Below, one piece after another: positions 19,583 to 60,382 of a DNA stretch of 64,000 nucleotides (position 1 is its first letter; every line of letters starts with the position of its first letter). The stretch comes from Eledone cirrhosa (lineage: Eukaryota), in contig OZ024743.1 in NCBI GenBank assembly GCA_964016885.1, forward strand, positions 94,736,001 to 94,800,000, written 5' to 3'. The notes beneath the pieces were generated by a model that saw nothing but the letters and a program-made list of their open reading frames with translations, did no database searches and was not told the DNA's origin. The translations under genes were made by a program, and so were the position numbers.

Positions 19583-19672
<90 letters not shown>
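19583..19672. repeat. (AG)n microsatellite
   Basis: Directly visible. Confidence 0.95.
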
Positions 19673-19676
<4 letters not shown>

Positions 19677-21275: not shown

Positions 21276-21879
21276 GAGAGAAATAGAAATATTTGGAAAT
21301 ACCAGAATCTAATTAACTCTATGCCTATTGTTGGTATATATAATAACACATGGGAAGCGATGAATTAATTGCATGTTTCATGCTCTCCCACACACACTGC
21401 CCATCCCACAATTGTTGCAATCAAACGTCCTTTTACAGTTGTTGATATCACTCGATACAACACGTGCTTATAGTAATCTTACATCAGTCAATGCTGTCCA
21501 TCCCGGAACTCTCAGTTTATGACGAAATGCATTGCATTGAATATTTTTGAAACCCGTTGTTCAGGTTGTGGACTTTCTTTCCCACATCAGTCTGCACCAA
21601 GCAGACATATGGTCAAAGGCGTTCCATTCGTGACCATCCCATCGTTCTTTGTTGTTGTATATATATTTTAGGATTACATTGGACAATGTGTTCTCCCGTT
21701 TTATAACGGAGGGAATTTGACTATGAAGTTTGTACTCCGTGGTTTGTAACTAACTTTTTAGTTGCAGCCATGTCATGAGTCCTTAAACTTTTGTTGGAGA
21801 GAGCCCATACCTCTCCAAGTTTGAACAGAGAGAGAGAGAAAGAGTGAGAGAGATAGAGAGAGAGAGAGAGAGTATTAGA

Positions 21880-22015
21880 CCGGTACTTTATTTATCGATC
21901 TCAAAAGGAGAAAGACAATGTTGACCTCGGTTGGATTTGAACTCATGGCACAGGGAGCCGGCGCAAACACCGCAAAATATTCTATCTGACATTCTAACGA
22001 CTCTGCCAATTTGCA
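21880..22015 (-). mobile_element. SINE fragment
   Basis: ggtactttatttatcga...gttgacctcgg..ggatttgaactca. Confidence 0.7.
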
Positions 22016-23261
22016 GCTTAAATTGTTATATGCAATATGAGAATGACAAAAAGAAAAAAGAAAACACATGGAGGAGAAATGCAAAAGCAGGGGACCCTAC
22101 ACCCTTGACTGCACTTCACAGACAAGATGGCGAAGGCATTACTGTAGAGACGAGCCAACAATACTTGTTGCGTCAGCCATTTCTACCTCATGAGGTCAAC
22201 TTTACATCCTTGATGGACAGTGTATATCAGCTACTGCATCTTACGGACAAAATGGTGAAAGCATTGTCGTGGAGAACAGACAACGATACTCAATACATTT
22301 ATCCATTCCACCTCGTTGAGCTCCTTCCTCAAGCATAATGCCCTCCCTATTGGGAGGAGGAAAAATGACAATCTGTGGATCGAGGGAACCCAACGTCTCA
22401 ACACATTATACTCAACTGTAACCTATGTAGTATGAGAATTTAATCCTAAATTATAGGACTTCAAACATTATCTTGGGAATGACTTGAATAATAATGGGCT
22501 CAAACAGATGAATTACCACTAATATCGAAAGAATTGGAAACGCATGATGTGGTTGGAGTATTACACCTAAACCTTTGCTCATAAGATAGTGGGTTAAATT
22601 CCTCCATGGAACTACGCGTTGTTTTCTTGAATAAAATATGTTATTTTATGGTGCTCTTTTTACCAGGAGTTGTGCCTCACAGATAGTAATCAATAAAGGA
22701 AAAGACCAATGAAATAGTTGTTTCCTTGGTCCAATCTGATGACCAGATTCTATTCTATTTTTTCCCCTAAAGAAATTAAGGTGTTATATTTATCGATATT
22801 TCGGAGGAACCCATAAAAGGTGACCTCGGCACTATCAACTGATTTGAACAACGGTACTCTCACTTCATCTTATTAGGTAATCGAAGCTGGAATGGCTTAA
22901 CTTGAAGGTCTGGTGATAGGAGAGATGGGCAGATAGATTTAAATCCAACGAGAATCGAATTGGAATTTCATCGATCTTGGATCGATATTATAAAGTACCA
23001 TGTGCGGGTCTCGAACGCAACAGACTAAACTTGCGCTCAACGTGTGCTCCGCTGTCTGTGTTGAGAAATACAATATATATACATACAATATATATACATA
23101 TACAATTGTTTCTATATCGATCAGCTCATGGTACATTTATAATTTTATAATCATGGGGCCTGACTCTTCTTCGACATCTCCTTAAATATGCGCGTTTTAT
23201 ACACACACACACATATATATATGCGTGTGTGTGTGTGTGTGTGTCTGTGTGTATGTGTGTG

Positions 23262-23384
<123 letters not shown>

Positions 23385-23399
23385 ATATCATCATGATCA

Positions 23400-35261: not shown

Positions 35262-35709
35262 AGTGCTTATCACATTCTTGAGTAATGTACTGTTCTTCAG
35301 GGCGTATAAGGCTTATAAATATTAGTTTCTCTCTTGGTGTGGTGATCCTAGCTATTTCTTGTATTAGGTTACGCTTTTGTTTTTCTTGATGACTTAATTC
35401 TCTATAGATCTTCTTTTTTATGTTTAGAATTAATGTTCGTTTTAGCCTATCTGCTTGTTTTTTGGTGAGTTGTAATCTTCTAACGTCAGTATTGATGGTG
35501 TTGGTGTAGATTCTGGACGAGGCACACTGCTTTATGAAGCATAGTTGTCGAGATGTTATGGTTTTTCGTAGACAACAGAACATGGTGGTTTTCAGTATCT
35601 TGTTAGCCTGGCTAAGGCTTACGATATTTCGTTTCTGAATTTGTTTAGCAAGATTCTTTATCTGAAATCGTGTGTTGAAACCGATATTGTTATACTTTGG
35701 GAGGGTCAT
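35262..35709 (-). pseudogene. Partial PLE ORF N-terminus without the frameshift (A6)
   Basis: MTLPKYNN...VRRLQLTKKQADRLKRTL... is one continuous frame, truncated at the element end. Confidence 0.85.
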
Positions 35710-35849
35710 GTTGCCAATAAGAAACACACGCACCAGTTGCTTTCACTTCAATTTATTATATATTTATAAATTTATAAATTTACAAATCTACAAATTTATA
35801 AATTTCTGGTTGGTTGGTTGGTTCCACAACCAGATAGTTGTTTATATAT

Positions 35850-35894
35850 AGTCATAGTCCTTTCGTCACACACTCTGTGACCTCTTCAGTGACT
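35850..35894 (-). ncRNA. Minimal type I hammerhead ribozyme in the PLE pLTR
   Basis: Identical to 9-53. Confidence 0.88.
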
Positions 35895-36098
35895 GGGGAT
35901 TCCTTTCTTTGTTTCTGTGCCTTTCCTTTCTTCTGTCCTACGCCATTTTGTTTCTGTGTGTGTGTTGTGTGCTCAGTTTGCGCATGCGCCACATCCGGGT
36001 GTCTGTGTGTGTTTGTGTTCATTTATCTATTTGTTTATTTATTTACATGTTATTGGTTGGTTGTTTGTTCTATGTGTGTGTGTGTTTTCATTTTGTCC

Positions 36099-39000
36099 TT
36101 AATTGTAAGTTGTGATGTTGCTGTTCCACTCATATTTTCTATTTAATTTTGGTTGTAATTCTTTTACGTTTATTGCCTCTGTAATTTGTCTAAACATTGC
36201 ATCTTTTCTGTGTGTAGATTCTATTTTTATTTCTATGTTCTCTAATTTACCCCTGTGTTCTATCTTAGCATGTTGGTAGAGTACAGATGATTCTTTATTA
36301 TCTTGAAGGTCTCGCCAGGGTTCATTTATCCGTTCCCCTATACTACGAGCTGTCTCACCTATGTACACTATATTTTTGTTTCTACATTGTCCTTCAGTAC
36401 ATCTTATGCTATACACTACATTTCTAGTTTTACAGTTAATATGGGGGCTTATTTTACAGGTTATACATTTCTTATCTATACATGAGGGTCTTTGGAACGG
36501 GTATGTCTTGCTAATAAGTGTTTTTACGGAGGTACCTGGTCTTTCTACTATCTTAATATTGAGTTTATGTTTATTTAGGGCCCTTCTAAATTTGTAGGCT
36601 AGTTCGCCTCTAGGGGTTGTGTCGATGAACATTACACTCTGGTATTTATTGCTATCATACCATGAGTTTATTCTATTGGCCTTGTTCCTAGTTCTTTCTA
36701 TTCTATTCCAAAATTTGCTCCTATACAAGGGGCAGGTCCCATTTATGTCATTATTTACCATTTTTTCCCATTTGGTTCTGGCTCCTCTATACACTCTGAT
36801 TCTATCTCTCTGATTGTACCCAGAGAACTGCATACGGTGGGTGAAGTGTTGTATGTGTCTCTCTAGTTCTTCGGGGTTGCACATGCGGGACACATTTCTC
36901 ATCACCCGTACCAAATACGCAATCAGTATGTTGATTTTGGTATGGTCCGAAATGGCCGAGTTTCGGTGGATCAGATGTTTGGAAGTCATGGGTTTGGTAT
37001 AATGGGAATGGAGGATTTGTTTTTGGTTGTTAATGGTATCTAACCAGAGCTCTGTGTCTAGTACAGGTAATCGATGGTTGGGGTGTCTACTTGGGTAGTC
37101 TATAGTAACTCTAATGCTCTGGTGGATGGAGTTTGCTATTTGCTGGATGCTTTCCATTGTGTTTTTCTCTAGTTCCTGACTGTTCTCTAGTGGGGGTGTC
37201 TTAACTACGATGTTTATATCATCTACGTAGCGGGAGTACATTATCAGGGTTAAGCTGTCTTCTAATTGTTCTTTAAGTTTAAGTCTACTGTCCCACCATA
37301 CCATGAATAAGTTAGCTATGTCGCCTGCAATGCTAACACCAATGGCTGCTCCTTCCTCTTGGGCATATGCTTTTCCATTAAATTTGAACATATGTTCCTT
37401 AAGGGTTAATTTTATGCTGGCCCCTACCGCATGTGCAATCATTTTCTTCAGTTCATCGTGGTTTTCGGGTGTCCGTATGGCTCTGGTCCACCCGTTCCAT
37501 CTATCTGTGTGGGTTTTCTTGGTCATTGAGGTAATGGTAGGTGGTCTGCCTCTTGCTGGTCTTGTAGGGCACAGGTTGCTAAGGTCATATGTGTCTAGGT
37601 AACTATTACTATGGGTAAGCTTAAGTAGAAGTCCCAGCTCACTGGTATCAATCCCACGGAACTCAACCTTGCTCTCGCTGATCATTTCTACGCATTTCTC
37701 CACAGCAAAATCCACGTCAATAGATGGATACAGGGACACAACATCCATACTGCCTATTATGCAGTTTGTTAGGTCCCCAGATCGGTTACCCACGCCGATT
37801 CTGCTGAGGAGGTCCTCCGTGCTGTCACATACATCTGGGGTCATCTCAATGATGGGGCGTATGATCAGGGAGAGGAAGTAGGACAGTCTGTAGTTACTAG
37901 CAATGTTAGCTCCACAGACAGGCCGTGTTGGTGGTCCCGCGACAGGGTCACAGCCCGTTTTATGGTCTTTTCGAAGCCCATACAACGCCGGCACGTCATT
38001 GTTCCAGGCCTGGAAGTTGTTGGCAGTCCTTTTGTTGGGCTGCATTATATTCGTCCACATCACCATATGGGCATTGAGGGCTTTTCCTCTATCCTCATGC
38101 TCCTGTGGTGTTACCTCTCTTGTGTTAGTGATGTGGGGTTGCATTGCCTGGATGTAGTTTGGCAGGCTGTCAACCGACATTCTGCCAGACTTGTCTGTTG
38201 GAAAGCATGCTATCTCTCCATTACGTGAGCGCTGCATGAGCTTACGCAAGCCATTTGCAGGTTTTTCTCCCAGTTGCTGGGCCTCTATTCTATTATGCTT
38301 CTTGCTATACTGTTCTATAATATTTCTAAGTTCGGATCTAGCTATACTAAATTGTGCTTCTGTTTGTTCATCGACCTGCGACGGCAACTGCGTGCGTTTG
38401 TTAAATGGTAAAGTCGTGGCGTGGACTCGTCGCAGGTCGAATGATTTATCGGAGGGATTATAAAACGGAGAGTTCCAGGCTGCTGCTTTATGTGTACTAG
38501 TGCTATTGTTATTGTTAGTTGTGTTGTTTCTATTTCTATTTCCACCAACAGCCTCATGGTTGTTTCTATGTCTCTCATAATTACTCCTGTCTCTTTCCAC
38601 TGGCTCAATGTTGTTATCTACCCTATTTTGTGTGTCTGTGTGTTCGTCTTGGTTATTCTCTTTGTCCTTAGTCTCCCTTCTCCTTTTAATCCTATTACTT
38701 TCCCTTATTTCTGTGATTTCTGTGCTACTGTCATTACTTGTTTTCTGTGTCTGTGTGTTTGTTAAGATTGTGGTGGTGGTGAGAGGCATTGAATGCGTGT
38801 GTGTTGTTGTTGTTGATGTGTGCTGTTGTTGATGTGTGTTGTTGTTGTCTCCGTGTGTGTTATCGTTGTTGTGTGTGTTGTTATTGTTGTTTGTGTCTGC
38901 GTGTCTGTTGTTGTTGTTTCTGGGTATGTTGTTATTGTTGTTGTTGTTGATGTGTGTGTTGTTGTTATTGTTGTTTGTGTCTGTGTGTCTGTTGTTGTTG

Positions 39001-39596
39001 GGATGTGTGTTGTATATGTGTGTGCGTATATTGTTGCTTTTGTTTTTGATGCTCCAGCGTAGTTTTGTAAATGATTTTTCTATTTCTGACAGACAACTAA
39101 TCATATTTACCTTCTTGAATGTCGCAAATTTCGGCGGCAAACATAACACAGACATTTCATCATTATCTATTTTTGCGTTCCCATATATGTTGGTGTTTTT
39201 GTTGTTGAACTCTTCTGATAATGAGGTGTCGGCCATGTTGATACCGTCAATTTTGTCGGGATATCTATTGGTATACTCTATAGTATCCTGATTTAGCTTT
39301 GCCTGTTTAAGCCACTTTAGTTTCCTGTTAAAGTGCTTATCACATTCTTGAGTAATGTACTGTTCTTCAGGGCGTATAAGGCTTATAAATATTAGTTTCT
39401 CTCTTGGTGTGTTGATCCTAGCTATTTCTTGTATTAGGTTACGCTTTTGTTTTTCTTGATGACTTAATTCTCTATAGATCTTCTTTTTTATGTTTAGAAT
39501 TAATGTTCGTTTTAGCCTATCTGCTTGTTTTTTTGGTGAGTTGTAATCTTCTAACGTCGGTATTGATGGTGTTCGTGTAGATTCTGGACGAGGCAC
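36099..39596 (-). CDS. PLE polyprotein (RT + GIY-YIG), unit B1
   Basis: Open 1165-codon frame with the same motifs as A1; retains FSGY where the other units have FSVY. Confidence 0.92.
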   Translation of the reverse strand: MPRPESTRTPSIPTLEDYNSPKKQADRLKRTLILNIKKKIYRELSHQEKQKRNLIQEIARINTPREKLIFISLIRPEEQYITQECDKHFNRKLKWLKQAKLNQDTIEYTNRYPDKIDGINMADTSLSEEFNNKNTNIYGNAKIDNDEMSVLCLPPKFATFKKVNMISCLSEIEKSFTKLRWSIKNKSNNIRTHIYNTHPNNNRHTDTNNNNNNTHINNNNNNNIPRNNNNRHADTNNNNNTHNNDNTHGDNNNTHQQQHTSTTTTHTHSMPLTTTTILTNTQTQKTSNDSSTEITEIRESNRIKRRRETKDKENNQDEHTDTQNRVDNNIEPVERDRSNYERHRNNHEAVGGNRNRNNTTNNNNSTSTHKAAAWNSPFYNPSDKSFDLRRVHATTLPFNKRTQLPSQVDEQTEAQFSIARSELRNIIEQYSKKHNRIEAQQLGEKPANGLRKLMQRSRNGEIACFPTDKSGRMSVDSLPNYIQAMQPHITNTREVTPQEHEDRGKALNAHMVMWTNIMQPNKRTANNFQAWNNDVPALYGLRKDHKTGCDPVAGPPTRPVCGANIASNYRLSYFLSLIIRPIIEMTPDVCDSTEDLLSRIGVGNRSGDLTNCIIGSMDVVSLYPSIDVDFAVEKCVEMISESKVEFRGIDTSELGLLLKLTHSNSYLDTYDLSNLCPTRPARGRPPTITSMTKKTHTDRWNGWTRAIRTPENHDELKKMIAHAVGASIKLTLKEHMFKFNGKAYAQEEGAAIGVSIAGDIANLFMVWWDSRLKLKEQLEDSLTLIMYSRYVDDINIVVKTPPLENSQELEKNTMESIQQIANSIHQSIRVTIDYPSRHPNHRLPVLDTELWLDTINNQKQILHSHYTKPMTSKHLIHRNSAISDHTKINILIAYLVRVMRNVSRMCNPEELERHIQHFTHRMQFSGYNQRDRIRVYRGARTKWEKMVNNDINGTCPLYRSKFWNRIERTRNKANRINSWYDSNKYQSVMFIDTTPRGELAYKFRRALNKHKLNIKIVERPGTSVKTLISKTYPFQRPSCIDKKCITCKISPHINCKTRNVVYSIRCTEGQCRNKNIVYIGETARSIGERINEPWRDLQDNKESSVLYQHAKIEHRGKLENIEIKIESTHRKDAMFRQITEAINVKELQPKLNRKYEWNSNITTYN

Positions 39597-39920
39597 ACTG
39601 CTTTATGAAGCATAGTTGTCGAGATGTTATGGTTTTTCGTAGACAACAGAACATGGTGGTTTTCAGTATCTTGTTAGCCTTGCTAAGGCTTACGATATTT
39701 CGTTTCTGAATTTGTTTAGCAAGATTCTTTATCTGAAATCGTGTGTTGAAACCGATATTGTTATACTTTGGGAGGGTCATGTTGCCAATAAGAAACATAC
39801 GCACCAGTTGCTTTCACTTCAATTTATTATATATTTATAAATTTATAAATTTACAAATCTACAAATTTATAAATTTCTGGTTGGTTGGTTGGTTCCACAA
39901 CCAGATAGTTGTTTATATAT

Positions 39921-39965
39921 AGTCATAGTCCTTTCGTCACACACTCTGTGACCTCTTCAGTGACT
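39921..39965 (-). ncRNA. Minimal type I hammerhead ribozyme in the PLE pLTR
   Basis: Identical to 9-53. Confidence 0.88.
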
Positions 39966-40169
39966 GGGGATTCCTTTCTTTGTTTCTGTGCCTTTCCTTT
40001 CTTCTGTCCTACGCCATTTTGTTTCTGTGTGTGTGTTGTGTGCTCAGTTTGCGCATGCGCCACATCCGGGTGTCTGTGTGTGTTTGTGTTCATTTATCTA
40101 TTTGTTTATTTATTTACATGTTATTGGTTGGTTGTTTGTTCTATGTGTGTGTGTGTTTTCATTTTGTCC

Positions 40170-42012
40170 TTAATTGTAAGTTGTGATGTTGCTGTTCCAC
40201 TCATATTTTCTATTTAATTTTGGTTGTAATTCTTTTATGTTTATTGCCTCTGTAATTTGTCTAAACATTGCATCTTTTCTGTGTGTAGATTCTATTTTTA
40301 TTTCTATGTTCTCTAATTTACCCTTGTGTTCTATCTTAGCATGTTGGTAGAGTACAGATGATTCTTTATTATCTTGAAGGTCTCGCCAGGGTTCATTTAT
40401 CCGTTCCCCTATACTACGAGCTGTCTCACCTATGTACACTATATTTTTGTTTCTACATTGTCCTTCAGTACATCTTATGCTATACACTACATTTCTAGTT
40501 TTACAGTTAATATGGGGGCTTATTTTACAGGTTATACATTTCTTATCTATACATGAGGGTCTTTGGAACGGGTATGTCTTGCTAATAAGTGTTTTTACGG
40601 AGGTACCTGGTCTTTCTACTATCTTAATATTGAGTTTATGTTTATTTAGGGCCCTTCTAAATTTGTAGGCTAGTTCGCCTCTAGGGGTTGTGTCGATGAA
40701 CATTACACTCTGGTATTTATTGCTATCATACCATGAGTTTATTCTATTGGCCTTGTTCCTAGTTCTTTCTATTCTATTCCAAAATTTGCTCCTATACAAG
40801 GGGCAGGTCCCATTTATGTCATTATTTACCATTTTTTCCCATTTGGTTCTGGCTCCTCTATACACTCTGATTCTATCTCTCTGATTGTAGACAGAGAACT
40901 GCATACGGTGGGTGAAGTGTTGTATGTGTCTCTCTAGTTCTTCGGGGTTGCACATGCGGGACACATTTCTCATCACCCGTACCAAATACGCAATCAGTAT
41001 GTTGATTTTGGTATGGTCCGAAATGGCCGAGTTTCGGTGGATCAGATGTTTGGAAGTCATGGGTTTGGCATAATGGGAATGGAGGATTTGTTTTTGGTTG
41101 TTAATGGTATCTAACCAGAGCTCTGTCTAGTACAGGTAATCGATGGTTGGGGTGTCTACTTGGGTAGTCTATAGTAACTCTAATGCTCTGGTGGATGGAG
41201 TTTGCTATTTGCTGGATGCTTTCCATTGTGTTTTTCTCTAGTTCCTGACTGTTCTCTAGTGGGGGTGTCTTAACTACGATGTTTATATCATCTACGTAGC
41301 GGGAGTACATTATCAGGGTTAAGCTGTCTTCTAATTGTTCTTTAAGTTTAAGTCTACTGTCCCACCATACCATGAATAAGTTAGCTATGTCGCCTGCAAT
41401 GCTAACACCAATGGCTGCTCCTTCCTCTTGGGCATATGCTTTTCCATTAAATTTGAACATATGTTCCTTAAGGGTTAATTTTATGCTGGCCCCTACCGCA
41501 TGTGCAATCATTTTCTTCAGTTCATCGTGGTTTTCGGGTGTCCGTATGGCTCTGGTCCACCCGTTCCATCTATCTGTGTGGGTTTTCTTGGTCATTGAGG
41601 TAATGGTAGGTGGTCTGCCTCTTGCTGGTCAGGTTGCTAAGGTCATATGTGTCTAGGTAACTATTACTATGGGTAAGCTTAAGTAGAAGTCCCAGCTCAC
41701 TGGTATCAATCCCACAGAACTCAACCTTGCTCTCGCTGATCATTTCTACGCATTTCTCCACAGCAAAATCCACGTCAATAGATGGATACAGGGACACAAC
41801 ATCCATACTGCCTATTATGCAGTTTGTTAGGTCCCCAGATCGGTTACCCATGCCGATTCTGCTGAGGAGGTCCTCCGTGCTGTCACATACATTTGGGGAC
41901 ATCTCAATGATGGGGCGTATGATCAGGCAGAGGAAGTAGGACAGTCTGTAGTTACTAGCAATGTTAGCTCCACAGACTGGCCGTGTTGGTGGTCCCGCGA
42001 CAGGGTCACAGC
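40170..42012 (-). pseudogene. PLE unit B2, 5'-truncated and frameshifted
   Basis: Has the 11-nt deletion plus a 2-nt deletion near 41124. Confidence 0.92.
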
Positions 42013-45000
42013 AAAAGGACTGCCAACAACTTCCAGGCCTGGAACAATGACGTGCCGGCGTTGTATGGGCTTCGAAAAGACCATAAAACGGGCTGTTTAC
42101 TTAAAGCGAGATAATCTTTGAATATTTTCATATTTCATAAATTATTATTTTATGTCCTAGGTCGAAGGCAAATAATCGATCAAATAGTTTCGGTTACTCT
42201 CGGGTCCTTTTAGTTTACATATTGAGACCCCAACCCACCCTATTCATTTTGTAACGTATGTGATTTCGGGTAATGTACTATTTCAGTCATATAAACGACA
42301 GGTGGGGATGGAACAGGAGCGGTCGGTATGGACACATTTGAAAAATTAACAAGCGGGGTGTCGGGGAGGGATTGTTCGAGACCCGTGAGTAGGTGAATAT
42401 TAACATAGTAACGATATCTCGGTAGCGCTAGTTTACTTAAAGGGAGATAATCTTTGAACATTTTCATATATAATTTATTATTTAGGATGCTTTCCCCAAT
42501 CATATGTTAAAGGGAGATAATCGGTAAAAGGTATCGGCTAAAAGAAATTTCAGAGTATATCAATTTAAGCCAAATTGAATTTAAATCACCTATATCAAGC
42601 TAAATCAAATCAAATCAATATCATTATCTATATTCAGAATTGGTTTGATCTTTTTAATAAAATTCTTTTCTTCTATGAATTTGTTTTGCGAGATATCTTA
42701 TCTTGAAACAGATATTGTTATACTTTGGGTGGGTCGTGTTGTCAATAAGAATACACGCACATGTCAGTTTTCACTTCAATTTATCATAAATTTCCGGTTG
42801 ATGGGTTGGTTCGGTAACCGGAGGATTGTTTATATATTGTCAAAGTTCTTTTGTCACACATTCTGTGACCTTTTCAGTGACTAGGTTGTTTTATTTTGTG
42901 TGTAGCTCCTTTGTTCTGTCCTGCACCATCTTGTTTTTGTGTGTTCTTTTCTTTTACATTTCTTTCAACTTCATTTGAGTCCTGAAGTTTATAAAATGGG
43001 AATATTATCATTTTTTTAATGCGTCAGTTTCCCAAATGACTACTTAGGGTCTTTGATCTGTTGATGGTGTACTGATGAATGTGTGTATTGTTTATATGGG
43101 CCCGTAACTCCTGGAGGAACCGTGGGTGTCGCCTTTGCCATTTTGTTAGCGGGGCATGGCTGAGGCACCGCTTAGACTAAATTATAGTATCTGTCCCTCC
43201 CCATTTCCCTTTCAATCGTTGCTTGAATATTGGTTGCTACGAGACGTGTAGAATACTCTATGCTGAGTAAATATAACAATCAATTGTTTCTTTTATCCTG
43301 GACATCCTGCTTGACGCATCTACTGGCTCATCTACAGCGAAGTCAAAGGAAGTTCTAGCCAGACAAAGCTATAACGCCGAAGCAAATCAATTAAACCGTT
43401 GATTGAAGCTATACCTACATATAGAATTAGAGAGAAAGTGACGTCCTCTATCAACTAACTTACCCTGTGGATCCCGGTCGACAAGATGGAGAATACATTG
43501 CCTCGAAGGTCGGTGAGGGAGACGCGCTGGAACAGCCATTCCACCATGCGGGGATCGCACCTGAGGAAGGCCAACCCCGCTCCAATAGCAGTGAGTAGGA
43601 ATGTGGTCTGGGGATAGTGGGGGTGACAAGAATGCCGGAAATCTCTACTGCTACAGGCCCTATCACAAACCTATCAGAGAGCGGCCGTTACTTTTCTTGA
43701 TTTAAATCCAAATAACGTTTACAATTTCCGCGTATGATTTTAATGTATAAAAATAGGAAAATATATGATGTAATATTATGTTTATTCAGATTCATAATAA
43801 AACTCAATTACAATTCTTTGTATGAAAAATAAATAATTATTTTGATAAATGAATAAATGATTACAAAAGGTAACGAAATGAAAAAGTTCATGTGATATTC
43901 TGTTCAAAATTAGCACCGGATTTCGTAAATATATATAGATATATCTCACCATATATTTATTTATTTATATATCTGTTTTACTATTGTTAAATAGTGTTCC
44001 ATATTTCTATCTTTCTCACCATTCATTCTCCATATACACAACCATTTATTCATCAATCCATCCATTTCTTTCTTCCATCCATCCATCCATCCATCCATCC
44101 ATCCATCCATCCATCCATCCATCCATCCATCCATCCATCCATCCATCCATCCATTCAATCCATACATCTTCCCATCCTGCAATCCATTCTTACGTTGACT
44201 GTTGTTAAATGATGTTCTCTCTTAAACAGTACAATTCAAACGTCTTTTGAAACTACACGTTCAAATGTGTAGTTTCATTAGGAATGTTGCTTAGTAAAAA
44301 TGTTGCTGGGTTAAAATCTATAATGACAGTATCCACGAATACATCTTTTTGTCGTGGGGTCAAACCTTCTACCATAGCCACAGGAAGCCATAATATATCT
44401 GCCATATGCACAAATAGCATAATGAGAACATATTTGTAAGCAAGGCTGTTTGTCTCTCGATTTACAATTACATGCTTTAGGAACGACACATTTTTTGTTG
44501 ATGTAACATTCTGTAATAGAGAAAGAAGAAAGGTTAGCTGAAACAAGACAAATTTACGAAATAGGAAATATATATGTATAGAATTAATAATCATTTATAA
44601 ACCAAATGCTTTGGTGCTTATCGTCTCAAATTTACAAGTTGCGTGAAGCTGAATAGTCCTACAGCAAATATGTGATTAGATGGCAGATACAACCTGAAAC
44701 TAGCAACATTTGTGTGTTTTTAAGCATACACACGCACTATATGCAAATGAGCATCGCCAACCAAAATTTAATAGGCAAACAGCATATAAGCTTTTAGTTT
44801 ATTCTTGTCTTATGACAGTGTATATAAAAGCATATCCTTATGTTTATGTATAATAATTTTAAAAGGTGTGAACATGTCACAGTTATCTCAGCAGTGGTGA
44901 GAATGCCAGGTAGATATTTATGCATTTTATCCTTCAACAGTAACATATATTTACTTGCTACTGAGACAAAATCTGCTAAAACCTATATAGTGTTTGCATA

Positions 45001-46452
45001 TCAATAATCCGCTAGTGAAAGGGAGATAATTAGGTAGCAATATCAGCGTTTTTCGTCACAGGGTTGTATATGTTTAATATATAATAAACACAAATCTCGC
45101 CTTGAAATTTTCAAAAAGTAGGGATCATGTCACAGGTATCTTAGTATTGGTGAGAATGCAAGATAGCTATTTCCGGATTGTTGTCCTTCATCAGTGACAT
45201 TTACTCACTCGCTACAGAGACAAAATGGGTTAAATCTCCTATGGTTTTTGCGTATGAGACATTAAATGGAGATGCTCATTTGCATATAGTGTGAACATTA
45301 CTGTTGAAAGGGAGATAACTATGTTGTACTAACACACACATTGTTCTTTGTCTTGTATGTTGAACCCATAACTTGTAGTAAAGGCATGGTAGTGTCATAC
45401 AGCGTTTCTTGGACATTTTTGAAACCTGATGGAGTCTACTCCACCCAAGGGCTAATTACAGTCAACTTCTTCCAGGGAGGGCGAGAGAGAGTGATAGAGT
45501 GAAGAAGTGAGTAAGAAATACAGAGGTAAAAAAATACGACACCAGTATTGGACTGGTATCTTTTATTATCGATGACGAATCGATGAAAGGCCTAGTTGAC
45601 CTCAGCAAGATTTGAACTGACAGAGTAGAGAGCCGGAATGAAGACTTCAAAGCATTCTATCTGACGTTCTAAAGACTTTGTTAATTCGCCGCCTATTTAT
45701 CTTGTAGGATACATTATATATTGTAACGAAATGTGAACCCATGAAAAACTAATGCTGTATGTCTGTTTTGGTATACGTCCTCAAATATAAACATTCTTCA
45801 CTACTCTAGTTACAATAACCTATACTGACCTATATTTGTTTATTTTAACCATGATATGGTCACATACACCCCCCTCCTTTGATAAACAGTTCTTCACACA
45901 TCGACTACCCCTACCTTTATTAGACTACAACCATCACCATCTACCATATCCATAAGAGCTACTATCACATACAAATATACATATGAGTGCACATTACACT
46001 GCTCTGAAAAGTTTAACATTATAAAAATAAGTGTTTCTACTTTTGGCACACGGCCAGCAATTACCCCAGTGCATTACTGGTACTTTATTTTATCGACCCC
46101 GTAAGGATGAAAGGCAAAGTTAACATCGGCTGGATTTGAACTCTGACCGTAAAGGGACGTAACTATGCTGGAAAGCATGTCCAACCCTCCACCGATACTG
46201 CACATTGACCGCCCAATTCACTGCCAAAAAATAATGGGTTCTAATTTAAGTAGAAAATCAGCAATTTGGGGAAGAGGAAAATCGATTAAATCGACCCCAG
46301 TACTTTCCTGGTACTTAATTATATCGGCTTCTGGAAGGATGAAGGGTAAAGTTGACTTCAACAAGATTTGAAACGAGAACGTAAAGAACCGGAACAAGTA
46401 CATGGCACTTTGTCCGGTACTTTAACGATTCTACCAATCAAAACATACATAA

Positions 46453-48382
46453 TTACTTACTTTGAGATGTTGTTGTTGTTGGTACTAGTGTTGTTGTTGT
46501 TGTCGGTACTGGTGTTGTTGTTGTTGTCGGTACTGGTGTTGTCGTTGTGGTTGTTGTTGTCGGGGTTGTTCTAGTTGTGGTTGTTGTTGTTGTTCGAACT
46601 GGTGTGGTCGTTGTTGTAGTCACATTACTGCTGGTAAATGGCCACCGGCTGTCATCACAGTGGAAAACAATTGGAATATTCTGGTGCTTCAGTTTCGGTC
46701 GAATCTGGTTGTTATAATCCCAGACCTTCATGTAAGTATCTGCGAGGGTTTTACCGTAGAAGGCAGTATCGTTACGAGTTATGTTCAAAAGTCCTATACA
46801 TTCTGTGTATCTTGGTGGGTTGGAACCTGGAACTAAGCAAGATGGCCGGCATATTCTTCCACATTGTTCCGTAACTGTTAGAAATACGAGAGCAGCTCCT
46901 TTTTCGGGGTCTCTGATACCGATATAAGCTAGATCTGATGATACAGCTAATCTACGGTCCACTACCACCATTTCTTCATAATTTCCAAAATAATTGATGC
47001 CACTGGCTTGAACATTCACTCTTCCTGCTGGTCCACAACACTTATTCATTCGACAAGTAGAATTACTGGACGAGGAATTTTTGGATAGACTGTTGTCGTA
47101 TATATCATTCAATAAGTTTGGTTGACCATTTACGATTGGGAAATTTCCAAATCTCATCGTCTCGTAAGGTCGTTCGTAAATTATTTCGATCGGAATAAAT
47201 GCCCATTCTTTTAAATCACACACACGGTTGATACAAAACATATTTTGATAGGGAATGAGAGTATTACAACGAGTTGTTGATTTAGATTTTGTTACACATC
47301 TTCCATTTTCGCATGTTAAGTATCGAGGATTACAAAGATTTGGATTGTAAGTACAATTTCCAAGTAAGTAATCATATTCATATCTGTAAATACCAGTGTA
47401 ACTTTGAGTTACTTTTAATGCTTCTGCGACTGTTAAATTCATAATGCCAATACTTTGGTTGGGAGCATAAATATCTAAACCAAAATTCGAAGGATAATCT
47501 GTTGCAGGATCGATGTTGTTTTTCTTTTGGTTTTCATTGAAACGTGTGTGAACAAGTTCTACATAACTGTGAAGTAGAAAGAAGAAAGGATCCATGGGTG
47601 CAGATGGAATCATAGACATATGTCCTCCAACAGAAACGTGCATAGAATTATGCATAAGTTCAAAGTTATAGCGTCGGTCAGCGTTTGGTTCTGATATTTC
47701 CTCGAGTTTCGTTCGAGTGAGAACATCTTCGATATTACGATGTGTTGGCAAAGTTGTGCTGAAACCTCCATTCCTTACTAGATGACCAGATGGTGTGGTC
47801 CAATTAGCAAACGGTCCACGATTTACAAATCCATTGACTGTTCCCATGAACGTGTCCGACCAGATAATGGAATCTCGAGGATTAGAAAGAGAAGCATCAA
47901 GAGTTGGATCCCAAAATGGAATTGCTACAGTTGGTACTTTTGTACGAAGAGCATCTTCCATCCTGAAATTTAAAAATAAAAACCACATTAACATATTTCT
48001 AATGACATATTTAATGAATGAAATATTACGAGGGATTTATTTAAATTATCAATTATTTTAATTATTAAGATCGTATTTGTTTCAAAACTTATCTAACGGG
48101 CTTAAATAAAATTTATATAAAATTCTCCGAATTGAGAGATCACAGCTCCGATACTATAGGCATGTGGAAGGAATGTCTCAGGAAAGAATCGCTGGACAGA
48201 TTTTACGGCCAAAACCAACCGGCAGGAGGCCCAGGAGTAGACCCGAGCATGATGGTCGGACCACATCCATGAGCCTGGCTGGTTTCGCTTGAGGATCCAG
48301 TCGGATCAGTTGGAGATGGTTGCTTCTGACAGGACCGACTGGAATGAGTGTGTGACGACTCTGCCTTCACGACCCTCTCAGA

Positions 48383-48449
<67 letters not shown>

Positions 48450-49592
48450 TGTTTGTGTATGTTGTGTTATGTTGACCTAGGATTTTGGATATAAAATAGT
48501 AGTAATCTTCGTTTTTTTTCATTAATGCTTTATTTTAACATAGATGGAGGAAAAGACTATGAAAGGGGACCAAAAGGGAAATGAAAAGAAGAAAAAAAGA
48601 AGAATCAAGCAACGAAAGAAAGGGAAAATGGGGGACAGATACTACACCCCAGTTTGAGCAGTGCCTCAGCTGCGCCCTGTGGACAAAATGACAAAGGCAT
48701 ATACCACGGAGAATGGCTAGAGATACCCGCTACAACAGCCATCCCATCTCACGGGGCTTCCTCCTCGAGCTAGCTGCTGTCTTTCCGATAAGCATTGTGG
48801 GGACCACGGACATCAGAGGTCTCGACGGACACCGGTACAACGAAGAAGCGGTTGGTCAGGACCCGGTATTAAACTACAATTATATTTCATGCCTTGCGGT
48901 ATTCATTTTGGCTATCTTCTCTCTGAGTTCAAATCCCGCCGAGGTCAACTTTGCCTTTCATCCATTCAAGGTCGAAAATAGTACCAGTCTAGTACTGGGA
49001 TCGATACTTCCTCTATATATCTTTCTCACTTTCATTCTCTCACTCTATCTTTCTCTGGAAGAAATCTGCTTTATTCAGAACTAGGGTGGAGACGGGCTCT
49101 GTCAGGTTTTAAAAAATACCATAGAATCACTGTATGTCAATATGGGGCTCCTACAAGTCCCACACAAGAACAACTGTTAAAACAGCAAAATGCCGACAAT
49201 ATTCATGGAATAATGGCGAAAAATCAGCGCAAGAGTAGCTGTTAAAACATGGTATTTAACGGCATTTTGGTGTTAACAGCTATTCTTGCGATGAGTTATA
49301 TTTTTCATTATTCTATGAATTCTAATATTAAAGTTATTAGCATAATATTACAGTAGAAAAAATAAGTAATTGGAAAATACTGAATTATTTACATTTTTAA
49401 ATAAACTCTGTGCCAGGTGAGGAATACAGGACCATTGTGAGCATTTCTGGCAGTTGCACCTGTATGGAGGAAGGCGATAGCATCGTAAACATTTGGTTCC
49501 ATGCTCTGTAAGATAAAGAAAGAGATATAAGACATTACAATCATTGAAACAAAGTATGGAGGCAGGTGTATATATATACACACACACACACG

Positions 49593-49628
<36 letters not shown>

Positions 49629-51157
49629 ATTACTTCTCTCGTAAGTGTACATATATATGAATATATAGTGAATTCTTTCTTTTTAAAACTTGTATCACTA
49701 TCAACTTATACACAACAGCAACACGTCTCTTCTCTTTGCTCTTCAACCTCTTAAAACGTATTGAAGCACAACTAGAGTGTCCTGCCGAGATTTCTTAACT
49801 CCACCTTTTTTTTATCATATTTCTATTGAAATACATTGCAAATAATTTTCAATGAATTTATGAAAATATATTTTTTTAAATGTTGGAATTCAGTAAAATA
49901 ACGTTTTCATTAGTAAGCTGGTTACATAAAATTATGATGGATTGTTTCTATATAATTATGAATACTTTAAAGCGGACAATTTTATATCATAGAATAGGAG
50001 CTGTTTTAAGTATCAAAAGGGTTAAATGCTATAATTATACTTCTTCTAAATGATGCAAATGATGATATTGTACAAGTAAACACTTGATCAAATATAAAGA
50101 CTGTCTGAACAGAAGGTTATTGAGTATATAGCTCTGTAGCCGGCACGTTACAATGCAAATGATCCAGTAACTCACATACTTTACTAGCGTGTATTAAATC
50201 GATCTGCTATGAATAATCCACTTCCACTCACGAAAGTATCTATATGTAGATAATATACTAGATTTCTCACTTCGCAGCATCCTCAACATCTGCTGGAGTG
50301 ATAGAGCGATTTTGTTACCAGCATTGAAGTTCTTGAAGAGACAGAGAGCACCAATGCATGTTTCCCGAATAGAAAATCATCATCGCTGCATGGCGAACTC
50401 TTCATTTTCCACTGAAACAGAGGGATCCGCAGAAAACGTACAAGGGTTCTCTAAAGAAATCTCTTTAAGCATGTCATATTGATCACCACCAGAGGTATGA
50501 TATGTCCTCTGATCAGGTGATCTGGTGACATACCATCTGTCAATTTCCTCCTTCGAGAATGAATGGAGGAAACCAGAACAAAATTAGACTTACTCTTGCT
50601 TTAGTCGTGTTTGCCTATCTTACGTTTTTCTCGTCAGTTACCAGCGAGCCTACGATAGATGTGGACAGCCCCTTTCATAAATCTTCGTTAACGAAGTAAA
50701 GTCATGATACTAGTTTAGTAAAATATCAAAGTCTGTCAGTACTCTGAACTTCTCTCAATAATATTCATATAAAAAAATAGAACCTTACCGTATCTTGTTT
50801 TAGAAGATGAATACTACGGTGGAAATCATATCTTTCTTGTTCACTGAGTTGTCTATATTCCTTCCTTACTCGGAGCATTATCATAGGATTTGGTTGTGAT
50901 GTTTTTGGTTCATCGGTTGGTAGATTATAATTTAGATAGTTTGTTGTCCAATTAGGACATATTTTCGCCATTTGGAGCTGACCGATGCAATATTTCCATA
51001 TATCGGCCTTCTTTTCAATTGGTGGATTTGTCGATTTGCATACATTATTAAAACAGTCTGGAACATAGCTACCTATTTCTGGAACATAATACTGTATATC
51101 TGACTTCACGTTAACGAAAGCCAGCAATATGATGAATGCTAGGTACAGACGATTCAT
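46453..51157 (-). CDS. tyr: Secreted tyrosinase, copy B; coding exons 51157-50789, 49505-49393, 47962-46453
   Basis: Same structure as copy A with all six copper His retained; 6 aa differences. Confidence 0.93.
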
Positions 51158-51350
51158 TGCTGAAAATATAAGAAAATGTAAAACATCATTCAGACGAAAG
51201 CATGGCTGTTAAGGAGTCTACTTTGCAACCACGTAGTTCTAGGCTCTGTCACTCTGTGCGGTGCTTCGAGCAAGTGTTTTCTACTAGTGAAATTTGGTAG
51301 ACAGAAATTACAGTGTGTCTGTCTGTCTATATGTTTGTTTGTTTGTGTGT

Positions 51351-51419
<69 letters not shown>

Positions 51420-52934
51420 CATCTCCGTATCTTTGTTTACGTTTATGTTTGTGTGTGCAGTATTTGTTCCAGCTCTTGAGATCATTAGCTCAATCCTCAT
51501 CGAAATCAACTTTGCCTTTCATTCTTCCAAATTTGATAAAACAAAGTGTCAGTTCAATACAAGGATCGATTCTCTACCTCCTCTCTATTTCTCTAGAAGA
51601 AGTCGGTTATGTTCAGACCTAGAGAGAGATGGGCTCTGCCAGGTTTAAAGTGGATGTAACGACGAGACTCCACCAGGAGTTAAGAGCTCAAAAGACGCAC
51701 ACTTATGGGATTCAACTCACATATTTGCTTCTTTTTATGGCTTACACTAAAACTAACCTGGGCGGGATTTGAACTCATCCATTTACACAATAATAATTTC
51801 AATAAATGCTGGAAAGAACGAGTTGATCTTGGTAAATATTGGTTTCAAATGTTCTAATTGAGGCGAGTTTAAAGAAATACCCTGTCTAATCGAATATCAA
51901 TTCAAAATTAAGATATATAACACTGACATTCTCCCTCTACCTATTTATGTATTATTTTGTTACTTGGTCTGCAAAACAAACTTCGAAAATTGAAGTATTT
52001 CAAAACCATGTCATGAGATTTATTACTGGTAAACGCCTAACAGACAGAGTTAAAATATTATTGTACATCTACGAGAAATGATACAACAATGAGCAGTTTT
52101 TGATAGTAATTCTCTCAAGTTGTTTTGCTACGTCAAATTTTCTATTTGTTGTCTCCCGAAAATCTTTCTGAAGAGGATATTATATCTTGAAAGAGAAATT
52201 AGGACGCTCCAATGTATATGAAGAGATCAGACCCTAAAATCTGCTTAGAGCATATAGTACATGAAAAGCGAAAATGAAGACGCCTCACTGATAGCTGGAG
52301 ACACCATTTCCTAAAATGGTCTTAATCCAAATCATGGAAAGAACTCAATAAAATGACAATGAACAGAGAGAGAAATGGAAAAAATACGTTCGTAAAGTTT
52401 CATACTCTACTACCGGAAACGGAAATAACGATTACCAAGCAGATTGCTAGATTTCTTCAATCGTGATTCAGTGAGACGATTATTATATTTTTGTTTGCTG
52501 TTACTAATACAATGTTTTGGAGTCTTTTGAGGTGGGAGAAATGAGATAAGATTGAGTGATGTTTATGAAGAAAATATCGGAGTTATTTGAATTATCTCTA
52601 CAATCCTCACGAAATTATTTCAAAATAATTAGCCATTTTGTCTCTATTGTGGGGTCGTTTACAATTGCTAACGTCTCTCTTGGGAATCCAGTCAGTTCTG
52701 TAAAGAGCGTTGTTTTAAATTATTGGACCTATTGTAGTATATTACTGGTATAGATTTAACCAAGCGTAATGTAAGTTAAATCAAAGGTAACCAGAAACAT
52801 CTGTGAATTGATTTAAATAGCAATAACTTCATAATGTATTGACACTAGTAAGACATGGAGATGGTGTTGTATAAATTAGAACTTCAGTTATGATATTGCT
52901 GTATGAACTTGTCATAATACAGTAAGACTCTTAC

Positions 52935-53016
52935 CTTCAGTTGGTTCTTAACACTTCCAGAACAATGTAGCTTGACAAAGTGATATGAATTCTTAAATAG
53001 TTACGGTATATATATA
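52935..53016 (-). promoter_or_regulatory. Putative promoter and non-coding exon 1 of tyrosinase copy B
   Basis: Same as 21194-21275. Confidence 0.6.
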
Positions 53017-53564
53017 GAGAGAAATAGAAATATTTGGAAATACCAGAATCTAATTAACTCTATGCCTATTGTTGGTATATATAATAACACATGGGAATCG
53101 ATGAATTAATTGCATGTTTCATGCTCTCCCACACACACTGCCCATCCCACAATTGTTGCAATCAAACGTCCTTTTACAGTTGTTGATATCACTCGATACA
53201 ACACGTGCTTATAGTAATCTTACATCAGTCAATGCTGTCCATCCCGGAACTCTCAGTTTATGACGAAATGCATTGCATTGAATATTTTTGAAACCCGTTG
53301 TTCAGGTTGTGGACTTTCTTTCCCACATCAGTCTGCACCAAGCAGACATATGGTCAAAGGCGTTCCATTCGTGACCATCCCATCGTTCTTTGTTGTTGTA
53401 TATATATTTTAGGATTACATTGGACAATGTGTTCTCCCGTTTTATAACGGAGGGAATTTGACTATGAAGTTTGTACTCCGTGGTTTGTAACTAACTTTTT
53501 AGTTGCAGCCATGTCATGAGTCCTTAAACTTTTGTTGGAGAGAGCCCATACCTCTCCAAGTTTG

Positions 53565-53600
<36 letters not shown>

Positions 53601-53605
53601 GGGAG

Positions 53606-53639
<34 letters not shown>

Positions 53640-55037
53640 TATTAGACCGGTACTTTATTTATCGATCTCAAAAGGAGAAAGACAATGTTGACCTCGGTTG
53701 GATTTGAACTCATGGCACAGGGAGCCGGCGCAAACACCGCAAAATATTCTATCTGACATTCTAACGACTCTGCCAATTTGCAGCTTAAATTGTTATATGC
53801 AATATGAGAATGACAAAAAGAAAAAAGAAAACACATGGAGGAGAAATGCAAAAGCAGGGGTCCCTACACCCTTGACTGCACTTCACAGACAAGATGGCGA
53901 AAGCATTACTGTAGAGACGAGCCAACAATACTTGTTGCGTCAGCCATTTCTACCTCATGAGGTCAACTTTACATCCTTGATGGACAGTGTATATTAGCTA
54001 CTGCATCTTACGGACAAAGTGGTGAAAGCATTGTCGTGGAGAACAGACAACGATACTCAATACATTTATCCATTCCACCTCGTTGTGCTCCTTCCTCAAG
54101 CATAATGCCCTCCCTATTGGGAGGAGGAAAAATGACAATCTGTGGATCGAGGGAACCCAACGTCTCAACACATTATACTCAACTGTAACCTATGTAGTAT
54201 GAGAATTTAATCCTAAATTATAGGACTTCAAACATTATCTTGGGAATGACTTGAATAATAATGGGCTCAAACAGATGAATTACCCCAGATTTCCTGACCA
54301 CTAATATCGAAAGAATTGGAAACGCATGATGTGGTTGGAGTATTACACCTAAACCTTTGCTCATAAGATAGTGGGTTAAATTCCTCCATGGAACTACGCG
54401 TTGTTTTCTTGAATAAAATATGTTATTTTATGGTGCTCTTTTTACCAGGAGTTGTGCCTCACAGATAGTAATCAATAAAGGAAAAGACCAATGAAATAGT
54501 TGTTTCCTTGGTCCAATCTGATGACCAGATTCTATTCTATTTTTTCCCCTAAAGAAATTAAGGTGTTATATTTATCGATATTTCGGAGGAACCCATAAAA
54601 GGTGACCTCGGCACTATCAACTGATTTGAACAACGGTACTCTCACTTCATCTTATTAGGTAATCGAAGCTGGAATGGCTTAACTTGAAGGTCTGGTGATA
54701 GGAGAGATGGGCAGATAGATTTAAATCCAACGAGAATCGAATTGGAATTTCATCGATCTTGGATCGATATTATAAAGTACCATGTGCGGGTCTCGAACGC
54801 AACAGACTAAACTTGCGCTCAACGTGTGCTCCGCTGTCTGTGTTGAGAAATACAATATATATACATACAATATATATACATATACAATTGTTTCTATATC
54901 GATCAGCTCAGGGTACATTTATAATCATGGGGCCTGACTCTTCTTCGACATCTCCTTAAATATGCGCGTTTTATACACACACACACATATATATATGCGT
55001 GTGTGTGTGTGTGTGTGTGTCTGTGTGTATGTGTGTG

Positions 55038-55202
<165 letters not shown>

Positions 55203-57195: not shown

Positions 57196-57277
<82 letters not shown>

Positions 57278-57440
57278 GTTTCTACTTTAGGCACAAGGCA
57301 AGCAAATACCCAGTACATTACTGGTACTTTATTTTATCGACCCCGTAAGGATGAAAGGCAAACTTAACCTCGGTGGGATTTGAACTTAGACTGTAAAGGG
57401 ACGTAACTATGCTAGAAAGCATGGCGTCCAACCCTCTATA

Positions 57441-58041
57441 ATGACGGATAGTCCTGGCTTCTTACTCTATTTTTTAATTCATATGTATCACATCTGCAAC
57501 AACGCATCACGCCATTTTCATCCCTATATGTTTTCCCTCCGCTGTGACCTGTCTCTTTCTCTTCCCTTACTGCTATCCTCTTTCTCTCTCCGCCTTCTCT
57601 CTCCTTCTACCTCTTACTTTCATTCACCCCCTCTGCTAGTCACCCTTTCTCGGCTAGCCTCTTCCTCACACTTCCACTCACTCACTCTCTGCTACTCACC
57701 CTCTCTCACTCCCACTCGTCTGACCTATGTGAAATTCTTTTCTCGCTCACATTTCGCATGGTTCGGATGCATCTTTCGGCTTTCTCGTCTATGATTCGCC
57801 AGATCTTATGTTCACTTGCATCACTGACTTGATTTTCCACCCTTTACGTTGCCTTACCATTCTTGGTTGTTTACATGTCTCTCTTTTTCCACCCAATTCT
57901 TTTTATCCCAATAACTTTATTTAGTTATTGCTCGCGCTGGCCTGAGGTATATGATCTTTAATGCGAAGAAATACCTATGATGGCCAGAAGATCACTGATG
58001 ACGGATAGGCCTGGCTTCTTACTCTATTTTTTAATTCATAT
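57441..58041 (+). repeat. 557-bp unit with a ~44-bp terminal direct repeat
   Basis: atgacggatag.cctggcttcttactctattttttaattcatat occurs at 57441 and 57998. Confidence 0.75.
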
Positions 58042-58449
58042 ATATATATATATATTAGGTTATGCAAGATATGCTTAGGATTATCCTGAATGCAGTAATG
58101 GTTAATTACTGCACTAGATAGAATCGACGTACGGTGAGGGGTTATTCAACGAGTTATGAAAGAACAGTTAAAGAAACTCGATTTTCGATTCTTCCGATAA
58201 AGAATGATTAATAAAACAGGTAGACATCATAAAAAGGTAATTTATTCCGAGTACTTACAAATGTTTCTTTAGTAGTTACACAGCCTAGTGATGCTGTGTG
58301 CAAATTGTAGTTATTTATTTGCAGGTACCCAATTTTCAAATGCTGTTCATCCTACCAAGTCTCAGAGCAAATGGCTAAATTGTAAATTCCCTGGTATTTC
58401 CTAAAGGGAGTTATTGGGGAAGATAGAGTAGAAAAGGAAGAGAGAAAGA

Positions 58450-59642: not shown

Positions 59643-60382
59643 GTGTCTTTTATATCGGTAATCTAATTTATTCGGTCCTTAATGTTGCCATTGACTGACC
59701 AACGGTCAAAAATAATACAGATACAATATAGACACAAACACATATATATAGTTTATCAAAGTTCTTTCGTTGCACATCTGCAACATCGTCAGTGGTGCTA
59801 TTGTTTCCTCCCGTTGCATTGTATTTTCTAAACCCTCTTTATTTAGTCTGTTTATATATTTATTTATTTGTTTATTTTATTTTGTCTTCTTTGCGCATGC
59901 GTTTGCGTGTGTGTATAGTGTTTCGTTTGATGTGTGTTCGTGATTGGGTGATTGTGTATTGGTTAATGTATTCTATCTTTACTAGTGTGTGTTTATATGT
60001 GTTTGTTGTTATTGTGCTTGTGTATGTATTAAACACACACTAGTAAAGATAGAATACATTAACCAGTACACAGTCACCCAATCACGAACACACATCAAAC
60101 AAAACACTATACACACACGCAAACGCATGCGCAAAGAAGACAAAATAAAATAAACAAATAAATAAATATATAAACAGACTAAATAAAGATGGTTTAGAAA
60201 ATACAATGCAACGGGAGGAAACAATAGCACCACTGACGATGTTGCAGATGTGCAACGAAAGAACTTTGATAAACTATATATATGTGTTTGCGTCTGTATT
60301 GTATCTGTATTAATTTTGACCGTTGGTCAGTCAATGGCAACATTAAGGACCGAATAAATTAGATTACCGATATAAAAGACAC
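59643..60382. repeat. Inverted pLTR pair (arms 59643-59995 and 60030-60382) with divergent hammerheads at 59755-59796 (-) and 60229-60270 (+)
   Basis: The arms are near-perfect reverse complements separated by a 34-nt spacer. Confidence 0.9.

Follow-up and report, generated by a model that had tools for sequence, protein, structure and literature searches.

The 64,000-nucleotide stretch of Eledone cirrhosa DNA analysed here (the window) comes from a 3.0-Gb genome and carries, on its forward strand, a 5'-truncated insertion of a non-coding, retrozyme-like element, within which lie the strands of a predicted hammerhead fold (Table 1). The 557-bp terminally redundant element recorded in a preliminary description of this DNA is borne out by a 48-nt repeat at exactly that spacing (57441-57488 and 57998-58045). 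The insertion is identical in five copies of a local segmental array (C4, 94.65-94.83 Mb). No empty site was obtained, the duplicate within the window being without the whole insertion region.

Directly 5' of the insertion lies a dispersed repeat of ~165 bp (57275-57438), with at least six further copies in the window, putatively a cephalopod SINE. The window also holds a 353-bp inverted repeat at 59643-60382, whose arms are 98% complementary and stand 34 nt apart, and a segmental duplication of ~31.8 kb (98-99% identity) that relates 3497-23388 to 35262-55164. On the reverse strand, a 527-aa frame occurs twice (14657-16240 and 46453-48036), the first copy with a tyrosinase domain (PF00264, E 1e-16), and a ~4.07-kb tandem repeat occupies 258-10225 and 35262-42012 with open frames of up to 1,169 aa; the two of these frames that were scanned had no Pfam match.

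Table 1. Features of the insertion and of the predicted ribozyme (window coordinates)
Feature	Position	Strand	Letters and basis
5'-truncated insertion, non-coding retrozyme-like element	57441..58044	+	one 557-bp unit plus ~47 nt of redundancy; ends in (TA)n
Left redundant end	57441..57488	+	96% identical to 57998-58045 (repeat family D11); 5' truncation point, inside the CUGAUGA block of the preceding unit
Stem II 5' strand (fourth strand)	57931..57936	+	first position C.A mismatch, then four Watson-Crick pairs and one G.U with 57962-57967
Outer helix P0, 5' strand	57937..57942	+	91.5-92.7% paired; double changes in 5 of 6 pairs
Predicted kink-turn, non-bulged strand	57943..57945	+	3n U, G2n, A1n
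Stem III 5' strand, U16.1 at its end	57946..57950	+	GGTAT; ~95% paired; double changes in 4 of 5 pairs
Predicted cleavage site, A57951 (H17) / U57952	57951..57952	+	H17 letters; inversion arms start there
Stem I 5' strand	57952..57958	+	TGATCT(T); 97-97.7% paired; 6 conserved pairs, the 7th pairs in this copy only
UAA linker, stem I to stem II	57959..57961	+	T 46, A 47, A 47 of 47
Stem II 3' strand	57962..57967	+	six bases before GAAA; pairs with 57931-57936
G12-A13-A14 and stem III 3' strand (A15.1 = 57971)	57968..57975	+	GAA-A at 57968-71, ATACC at 57971-75; register, covariation
Predicted kink-turn, bulged strand	57976..57981	+	3-nt bulge, G1b, A2b, 3b U; letters partly fixed by the search pattern
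Outer helix P0, 3' strand	57982..57987	+	pairs with 57937-42
One-nt linker and stem I 3' strand	57988..57994	+	(A)AGATCA; covariation
C3-A9 core, CUGANGA	57995..58001	+	CTGATGA; N7 free; six other letters
Conserved N-GG(A) tail after A9	58002..58005	+	G 105, G 105 of 108; without a supported partner
3' junction with (TA)n target	58038..58056	+	~93 nt past the predicted cut

Copies elsewhere in the genome are 5'-truncated, often arranged as head-to-head pairs or partial tandems, and end at (TA)n. Tandem units are spaced 445-762 bp apart (20 pairs) and hold one hammerhead each; no informative ORF was found within the units. The family is present in contigs from three sequencing runs of one sample, which give no information on cleavage. 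A first look with the window region gave 3,159 candidates, 40 of which were scored, and the pattern GAAA-N5-ATGA-N14-CTGANGA has 17,605 matches in the genome versus 17 for its reversed control. A pattern combining the site with GAAA matched 731 times (control, 0), and a variant written for a diverged family, D, matched 392 times (control, 4). All loci retrieved from the pattern lists are among the first 100 listed places, on contigs C1 and C2, with 40 regions hand-picked for divergence. In 85 of the 107 distinct matches retrieved, the upstream site block has at least 8 of its 10 positions paired, compared with 2.2% of random flanks and 10 of 121 chance matches in viral contigs; considered as carriers of the family, the viral contigs held such chance matches only. 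Over 57920-58045 the window copy departs from the majority of its subfamily at two positions, 58009 (a private G) and the variable H17, and is therefore not decayed, contrary to what had been suspected. Beyond the ribozyme, the alignment of family D units with the window unit (0.62-0.67) is no better than that of shuffled sequences (0.63-0.68). Rare, more diverged relatives of the fold were also seen (L184, L191, L201-L208 and L333), two of which, L201 and L333, resemble the end of a Naiad.

A core of crossing stems and a fourth strand

The letters and positions given in the preliminary description for stems I and III, the site, GAAA and CUGAUGA were all recovered, as were the exact hammerhead register and the crossing of the stems. 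C3-A9, G12-A14 and the A15.1-U16.1 pair stand in that register, and stems I, II and III covary, stem II being the least supported. The six core letters other than N7 were fixed by the search pattern and are intact in most copies found without it. Among 85 copies, H17 is C in 40, A in 32, U in 12 and G in 1, and N7 is U in 65, C in 15, G in 3 and A in 2; taken together, the avoidance of G at H17 and the freedom of N7 across subfamilies read as a catalytic signature.

Pairing was assessed in two alignments, one comprising the window and 44 of the 47 distinct copies, after exclusion of 3 whose upstream sequence is broken, the other the window and 49 of 77 cluster representatives, hand-chosen for spread (50 rows). 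The first gave 97% pairing in stem I, 95% in stem III and 91.5% in P0, with double changes in 15 of 17 pairs; the corresponding values in the second were 97.7%, 95.2% and 92.7%, with U-A at 16.1-15.1 in all 50 rows. P0 (57937-42 with 57982-87) is a covarying outer helix that the preliminary description had lacked. Stem III pairs as proposed there, with 5 bp instead of 6, since the sixth A and U belong to a kink-turn-type loop, and of the seven pairs proposed for stem I, six are conserved and the seventh varies among copies. The order site, GAAA, CUGANGA with crossing stems sets the motif apart from types I, II and III, in which the circular order is site, CUGANGA, GAAA and the stems are nested, and Rfam returned nothing at gathering score, only sub-threshold matches, in keeping with the original idea of a pseudoknotted hammerhead that standard descriptors miss. 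Single-strand folding, a method blind to pseudoknots, recovered the P0/III hairpin (z -3.5 for 57937-58008) and found the 101-nt region not unusual (z 0.19). A fourth helix between the tail and upstream sequence was rejected, the best ungapped helix being 0.68 paired. Separately, 57976, the first bulge base (+8 from G12), covaries with tail base 58007 (+39) as A-U in 61 and U-A in 21 of 108, which may reflect a tertiary contact or shared descent only.

Stem II had been called weak, having been sought with the strand after CUGAUGA; its actual partner is the strand at 57931-57936, upstream of the range then considered. The four central pairs of this helix are kept in 49, 46, 45 and 47 of the 50 rows of the second alignment, with swaps between U-A and G-C and between C-G and U-A. 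Neither its paired fraction nor its covariation score was reached by any of 500 shuffles, and slid-register controls gave 28-46%. Taken alone, its counts of double-change pairs and of pair types were not above shuffles (353 and 335 of 500), and the relatedness of the copies means that alignment cells do not count as independent events. At its first position, stem II lacks a pair in 30 of 50 rows, the window copy included; the type I hammerheads of this genome's Penelope-type elements (PLEs) also have a non-standard pair at the same place of stem II. The register with the strand just 5' of P0 was found in the main families and in family D alike. Because this upstream strand pairs with the bases before GAAA, the 'extra GAA' once noted there is the end of the stem II strand; the same 9-nt linker is present in 54 of 85 copies, and related families differ from it by substitution.

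That the motif is instead a plain hammerhead of type SGC, whose weak stem II would draw on the strand 3' of CUGAUGA, seems to us very improbable. The block order does match that type, the GG after the core is conserved, and in family D the CC before GAAA could pair with it. However, the downstream strand is 39% paired ungapped and 35.6% with a bulge, against 90-98% for the central pairs with the upstream strand, and the stem I-stem II interaction helix of type SGC is not conserved, its best pairing being 5.0 of 6 versus 4.8 in shuffled sequences (45 copies). The covariation foreseen among homologues thus holds for stems I and III and fails for a stem II restored with the downstream strand. Among other pairings tried, a hairpin GGA-UAG-UCC as stem II is not kept in other subfamilies (by eye), a tandem sheared G.A stem II with the downstream strand fits less well than the upstream partner, and an SGC-type helix of 57982-87 with 58011-16 fits the window subfamily only. 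A twister reading of the UAAUGC linker was dropped, the remaining twister blocks being absent (by eye).

Covariation shows the following wiring, read from the 5' end: the first strands of stem II and P0, one side of the internal loop and the first strand of stem III precede the cut site; the first strand of stem I, UAA and the second strand of stem II come next; and GAAA, the second strand of stem III, the other side of the loop and the second strands of P0 and stem I lead up to CUGAUGA. In this four-strand wiring A9 is not joined to stem II, unlike in all published types.

Between P0 and stem III, a 3-nt bulge is followed by G.A in 39 and A.G in 41 of 47 distinct copies. The standard kink-turn is defined by a 3-nt bulge and tandem G.A and A.G pairs between two helices (PMC5689011), so that the internal loop is, by its letters, a kink-turn of standard type, for which a kinked fold is predicted. 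It shares the 3-nt bulge and the tandem G.A and A.G with box C/D-type kink-turns as described in that source, and differs in standing within a predicted ribozyme arm. In family D, Watson-Crick pairs around the 3-nt bulge replace the G.A pairs, and the kink-turn is thus not universal. In the window copy 3b:3n is U:U and 4b:4n is G:C, by the rules given in PMC5689011 a combination that folds poorly in Mg2+ alone, so that 15.5k/Snu13 or tertiary contacts would be needed.

The box C/D-like kink-turn would fold the III-P0 arm back, thereby bringing together the distal ends of stems I, II and P0, and the kinked arm would replace the usual loop 1-loop 2 contact, allowing a single RNA to fold in cis. 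The same four helices could also form between two RNAs or neighbouring units, as a domain-swapped dimer with stems I and II in trans, an arrangement that we regard as unlikely. With trans pairing the ring would close under less strain, hammerheads of metazoan PLEs and of salamanders are described as acting as dimers (PMC4209133, PMC7229834), family D does without the G.A pairs, and the cis fold, estimated by hand from helix lengths with a kink of 50 degrees, would have a gap of ~10 Angstrom to bridge. By the same kind of estimate, that gap would be bridgeable by a frayed last pair. Moreover, stem III is long and stable, unlike in dimer-type hammerheads as published accounts present them, the fixed helix lengths and the kink-turn accord with a closed monomer, the arms of head-to-head copies beginning at the site are short and mostly carry no second ribozyme, and for SGC ribozymes cleavage of single constructs while they were being transcribed has been published (Eckert et al. 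2023, PMC10085705). By rough geometry, the obligate dimer or trans mode raised in the preliminary description would not be needed, and the cis fold is the one we favour.

Copy ends around the predicted cleavage site

Simple 5' ends were counted in 163 of 174 matches, the 11 without a reference being left out. Nineteen of the 163 fall within the 17 nt at or after the site, against 8.9 expected (p 0.0016), and they spread across 16 nt past the site with no peak at the site itself. Compared with the next interval, the automated excess was not significant (Fisher p 0.11); corrected by eye for (TA)n overshoot, the 5' ends number 26 in the site interval versus 2 in the next. A second cluster of 5' ends lies at the 5' edge of P0. 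Given the spread and this second cluster, RNA structure alone may shape part of the pattern.

Head-to-head junctions were sought with a pattern that occurs at 35 places genome-wide (control, 6), 19 of which were scored as inversions; an earlier search pattern had returned mostly noise with an uninformative control. Two of the junctions had been seen before the test was designed, and an A at H17 makes the length of an arm uncertain by one base. In the 19 scripted junctions, the start of 12 of 38 arms falls on the site or the base preceding it (4.75 expected, p 0.0017), and arms past the site number 2 of 38 (7.8 expected, p 0.009). A gapped recheck of 7 of the remaining 16 places yielded 4 more inversions, and one arm starts at the predicted cut in 13 of 23 junctions by eye and in 10 of 19 by script; four of the 13 belong to subfamilies that, like the window, have A at 11.1. 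With control anchors, 2 places were obtained just upstream and 10 downstream, the latter including ~6 family-like places and showing no peak; these counts are only roughly comparable because the anchors are unequally common. The inversion arms are short, ending ~66 or 114 nt past the site, as expected for copies of the 3' cleavage product.

Since shortened copies often begin at the predicted cut, the motif likely cuts in the animal, as judged from this indirect genomic footprint. About four fifths of anchored copies read through the site, which would call for slow cleavage, re-ligation or a circular template. The majority that reads through would also fit a non-catalytic structural signal, a descendant of a Naiad hammerhead kept for protein binding or reverse transcriptase recruitment, with copy ends produced by reverse transcriptase stalls or nicks in single-stranded RNA. 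The spread of simple 5' ends and the cluster at the P0 edge point the same way, PLE hammerheads are often poor cleavers in vitro according to published accounts, and 8 of 9 Xenopus retrozyme dimers failed to cleave. Nevertheless, H17 avoids G and N7 stays free across subfamilies, and the inversion arms stop at the predicted phosphate and rarely extend beyond it; we therefore hold a purely structural role to be quite unlikely and retain self-cleavage as the preferred reading. In two further copies (L300 and L283), a deletion that removes ~28 nt before the cut has its right end at or beside the predicted cut, an outcome consistent with trimming of the 5' product before it was joined again to the 3' product.

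Likely mobilisation and probable source of the fold

The units are likely non-autonomous PLEs, as they exhibit 5' truncation, 5' inversion, partial tandems, (TA)n targets and a tail at one end; partial tandems, inversions and (TA)n targets are known PLE traits (PMC8557442). Their 3' ends cluster at two distances ~48 nt apart. A very abundant family in the same genome (L101-L120; ~4.1 kb, long open frames, (TA)n targets, 92,447 first-look candidates) is, judging by its motifs, presumably a PLE, although Pfam gave no match. The type I hammerhead in its terminal repeat has a variant core, with C at position 4, and leaves the first position of stem II unpaired. Among the 20 loci of this family compared, no end sequence in common with the units was found. 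The PLE ORFs lying 5' of L170 and L210 are adjacent elements and not the parents of the units. One chimeric junction would link the units to a particular autonomous PLE: at L038:1375-1430, a unit fragment lies head to head with a 5'-truncated PLE reverse transcriptase fragment, possibly through a template switch. On another contig (C5), an unrelated tandem unit (L114, reverse strand 8893 and 9440; ~547 bp) bears a motif resembling a type I hammerhead and probably represents an ordinary non-LTR retrozyme family.

Published SGC and Naiad sequences were compared with the motif by eye. The 3' ends of Naiad_Ovul and of the record preceding it (presumably Naiad_Obim, by table order) agree with the motif in their four helices, loop and spacing and differ from it in their stem letters; the end of Naiad_Esco was too unclear by eye to assign a fold. 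Among the retrieved units none adjoins a Naiad ORF, and a 14-letter Naiad motif has 7 matches in the genome versus 11 for the control; two or three of the 7 look like decayed relatives, and none stands beside a Naiad ORF. The fold probably derives from the end of a Naiad retrotransposon. As cephalopod Naiads are described as old remnants (PMC8557442), another PLE may move the units now.

Taken together, these observations lead us to propose, with fair assurance, that every unit of this high-copy non-coding repeat, likely moved by PLEs, carries a four-strand hammerhead fold predicted to self-cleave after A57951. Transcripts through partial tandems would be cut at the site, thereby setting the RNA 5' end; PLE reverse transcriptase and endonuclease would then prime at AU-rich sites 65-140 nt downstream, at (TA)n nicks, and the PLE machinery would insert 5'-truncated, often inverted copies. 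The 5' product would stay bound through three helices, and its re-ligation, or slow and protein-assisted cleavage, would account for the majority of copies that read through the site.

A bolder reading, which we put forward tentatively, as possible rather than probable, would make this the seventh natural hammerhead wiring, at odds with the rule of three unsplittable blocks, with a four-strand core and a kink-turn cage that needs the host protein 15.5k/Snu13 to fold, hence a protein-switched ribozyme, the one missing from the Naiad clade and its non-coding parasites, present in tens of thousands of copies in animal genomes and covered by no current descriptor. If true, a covarying four-strand form in an animal genome would mean that the core tolerates a break between A9 and stem II, the reported gap of Naiads without hammerheads would close, and a highly abundant class of animal ribozymes would be escaping descriptor searches. 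Its box C/D-like kink-turn would make the arm relevant to protein-gated self-cleavage, a long-suspected and unshown route for switching on PLE hammerheads in vivo, and could offer a new scaffold for RNA switches.

Comparison with known hammerheads and retroelements

The hammerhead has been assumed to consist of three uninterruptible blocks, which allow six possible orders, the non-circular ones having come almost only from environmental RNA (Eckert et al. 2023, PMC10085705). Type SGC, with the order S, G, C, was described from metatranscriptomes; such RNAs were validated and none was reported from the genome of a known organism (PMC10085705), whereas more than 17,000 pattern matches lie here in one animal. 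SGC ribozymes (HRIMA-1 and variants) share with the present motif the order site, GAAA, CUGANGA, the crossing stems, all core letters, a short link between stems I and II and a size of ~70-80 nt. In SGC, however, the stem II strand follows CUGAUGA, while here it lies 5' of everything, and a fourth helix joins the flanks of block C that is absent here. Stem III is here extended via a kink-turn-type loop, and the word 'kink' occurs 0 times in the SGC supplement (PMC10085705). Our literature search, with most subscription journals outside its coverage, found no paper with this wiring and, in the literature searched, no precedent for a tested core with a broken A9-10.1 link.

Non-LTR retrozymes are likewise few-hundred-bp non-coding units with one hammerhead each, partial tandems and PLE co-occurrence (PMC7229834; bioRxiv 10.64898/2026.07.22.740005). 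As reported in these sources, their hammerheads are of type I and were found with type I descriptors, they lie in long arrays, and circular RNA has been shown for them; the motif here is not type I, and its copies are dispersed, truncated and inverted. Naiads (Craig et al. 2021, PMC8557442) have (TA)n targets, pLTR-type tandems, inversions and a tail at one end in common with the units; they are coding and reported to lack canonical hammerheads, Naiad_Ovul being listed with an 'HHR_half_core', whereas the units here are non-coding.

On these comparisons, the motif appears to work like a hammerhead and has the SGC block order, yet it is not a member of type SGC as defined. The novel topology proposed in the preliminary description thus stands in part: the block order alone was already known (PMC10085705), and what is new is a stem II built from a fourth, 5' strand, together with a predicted kink-turn on stem III.
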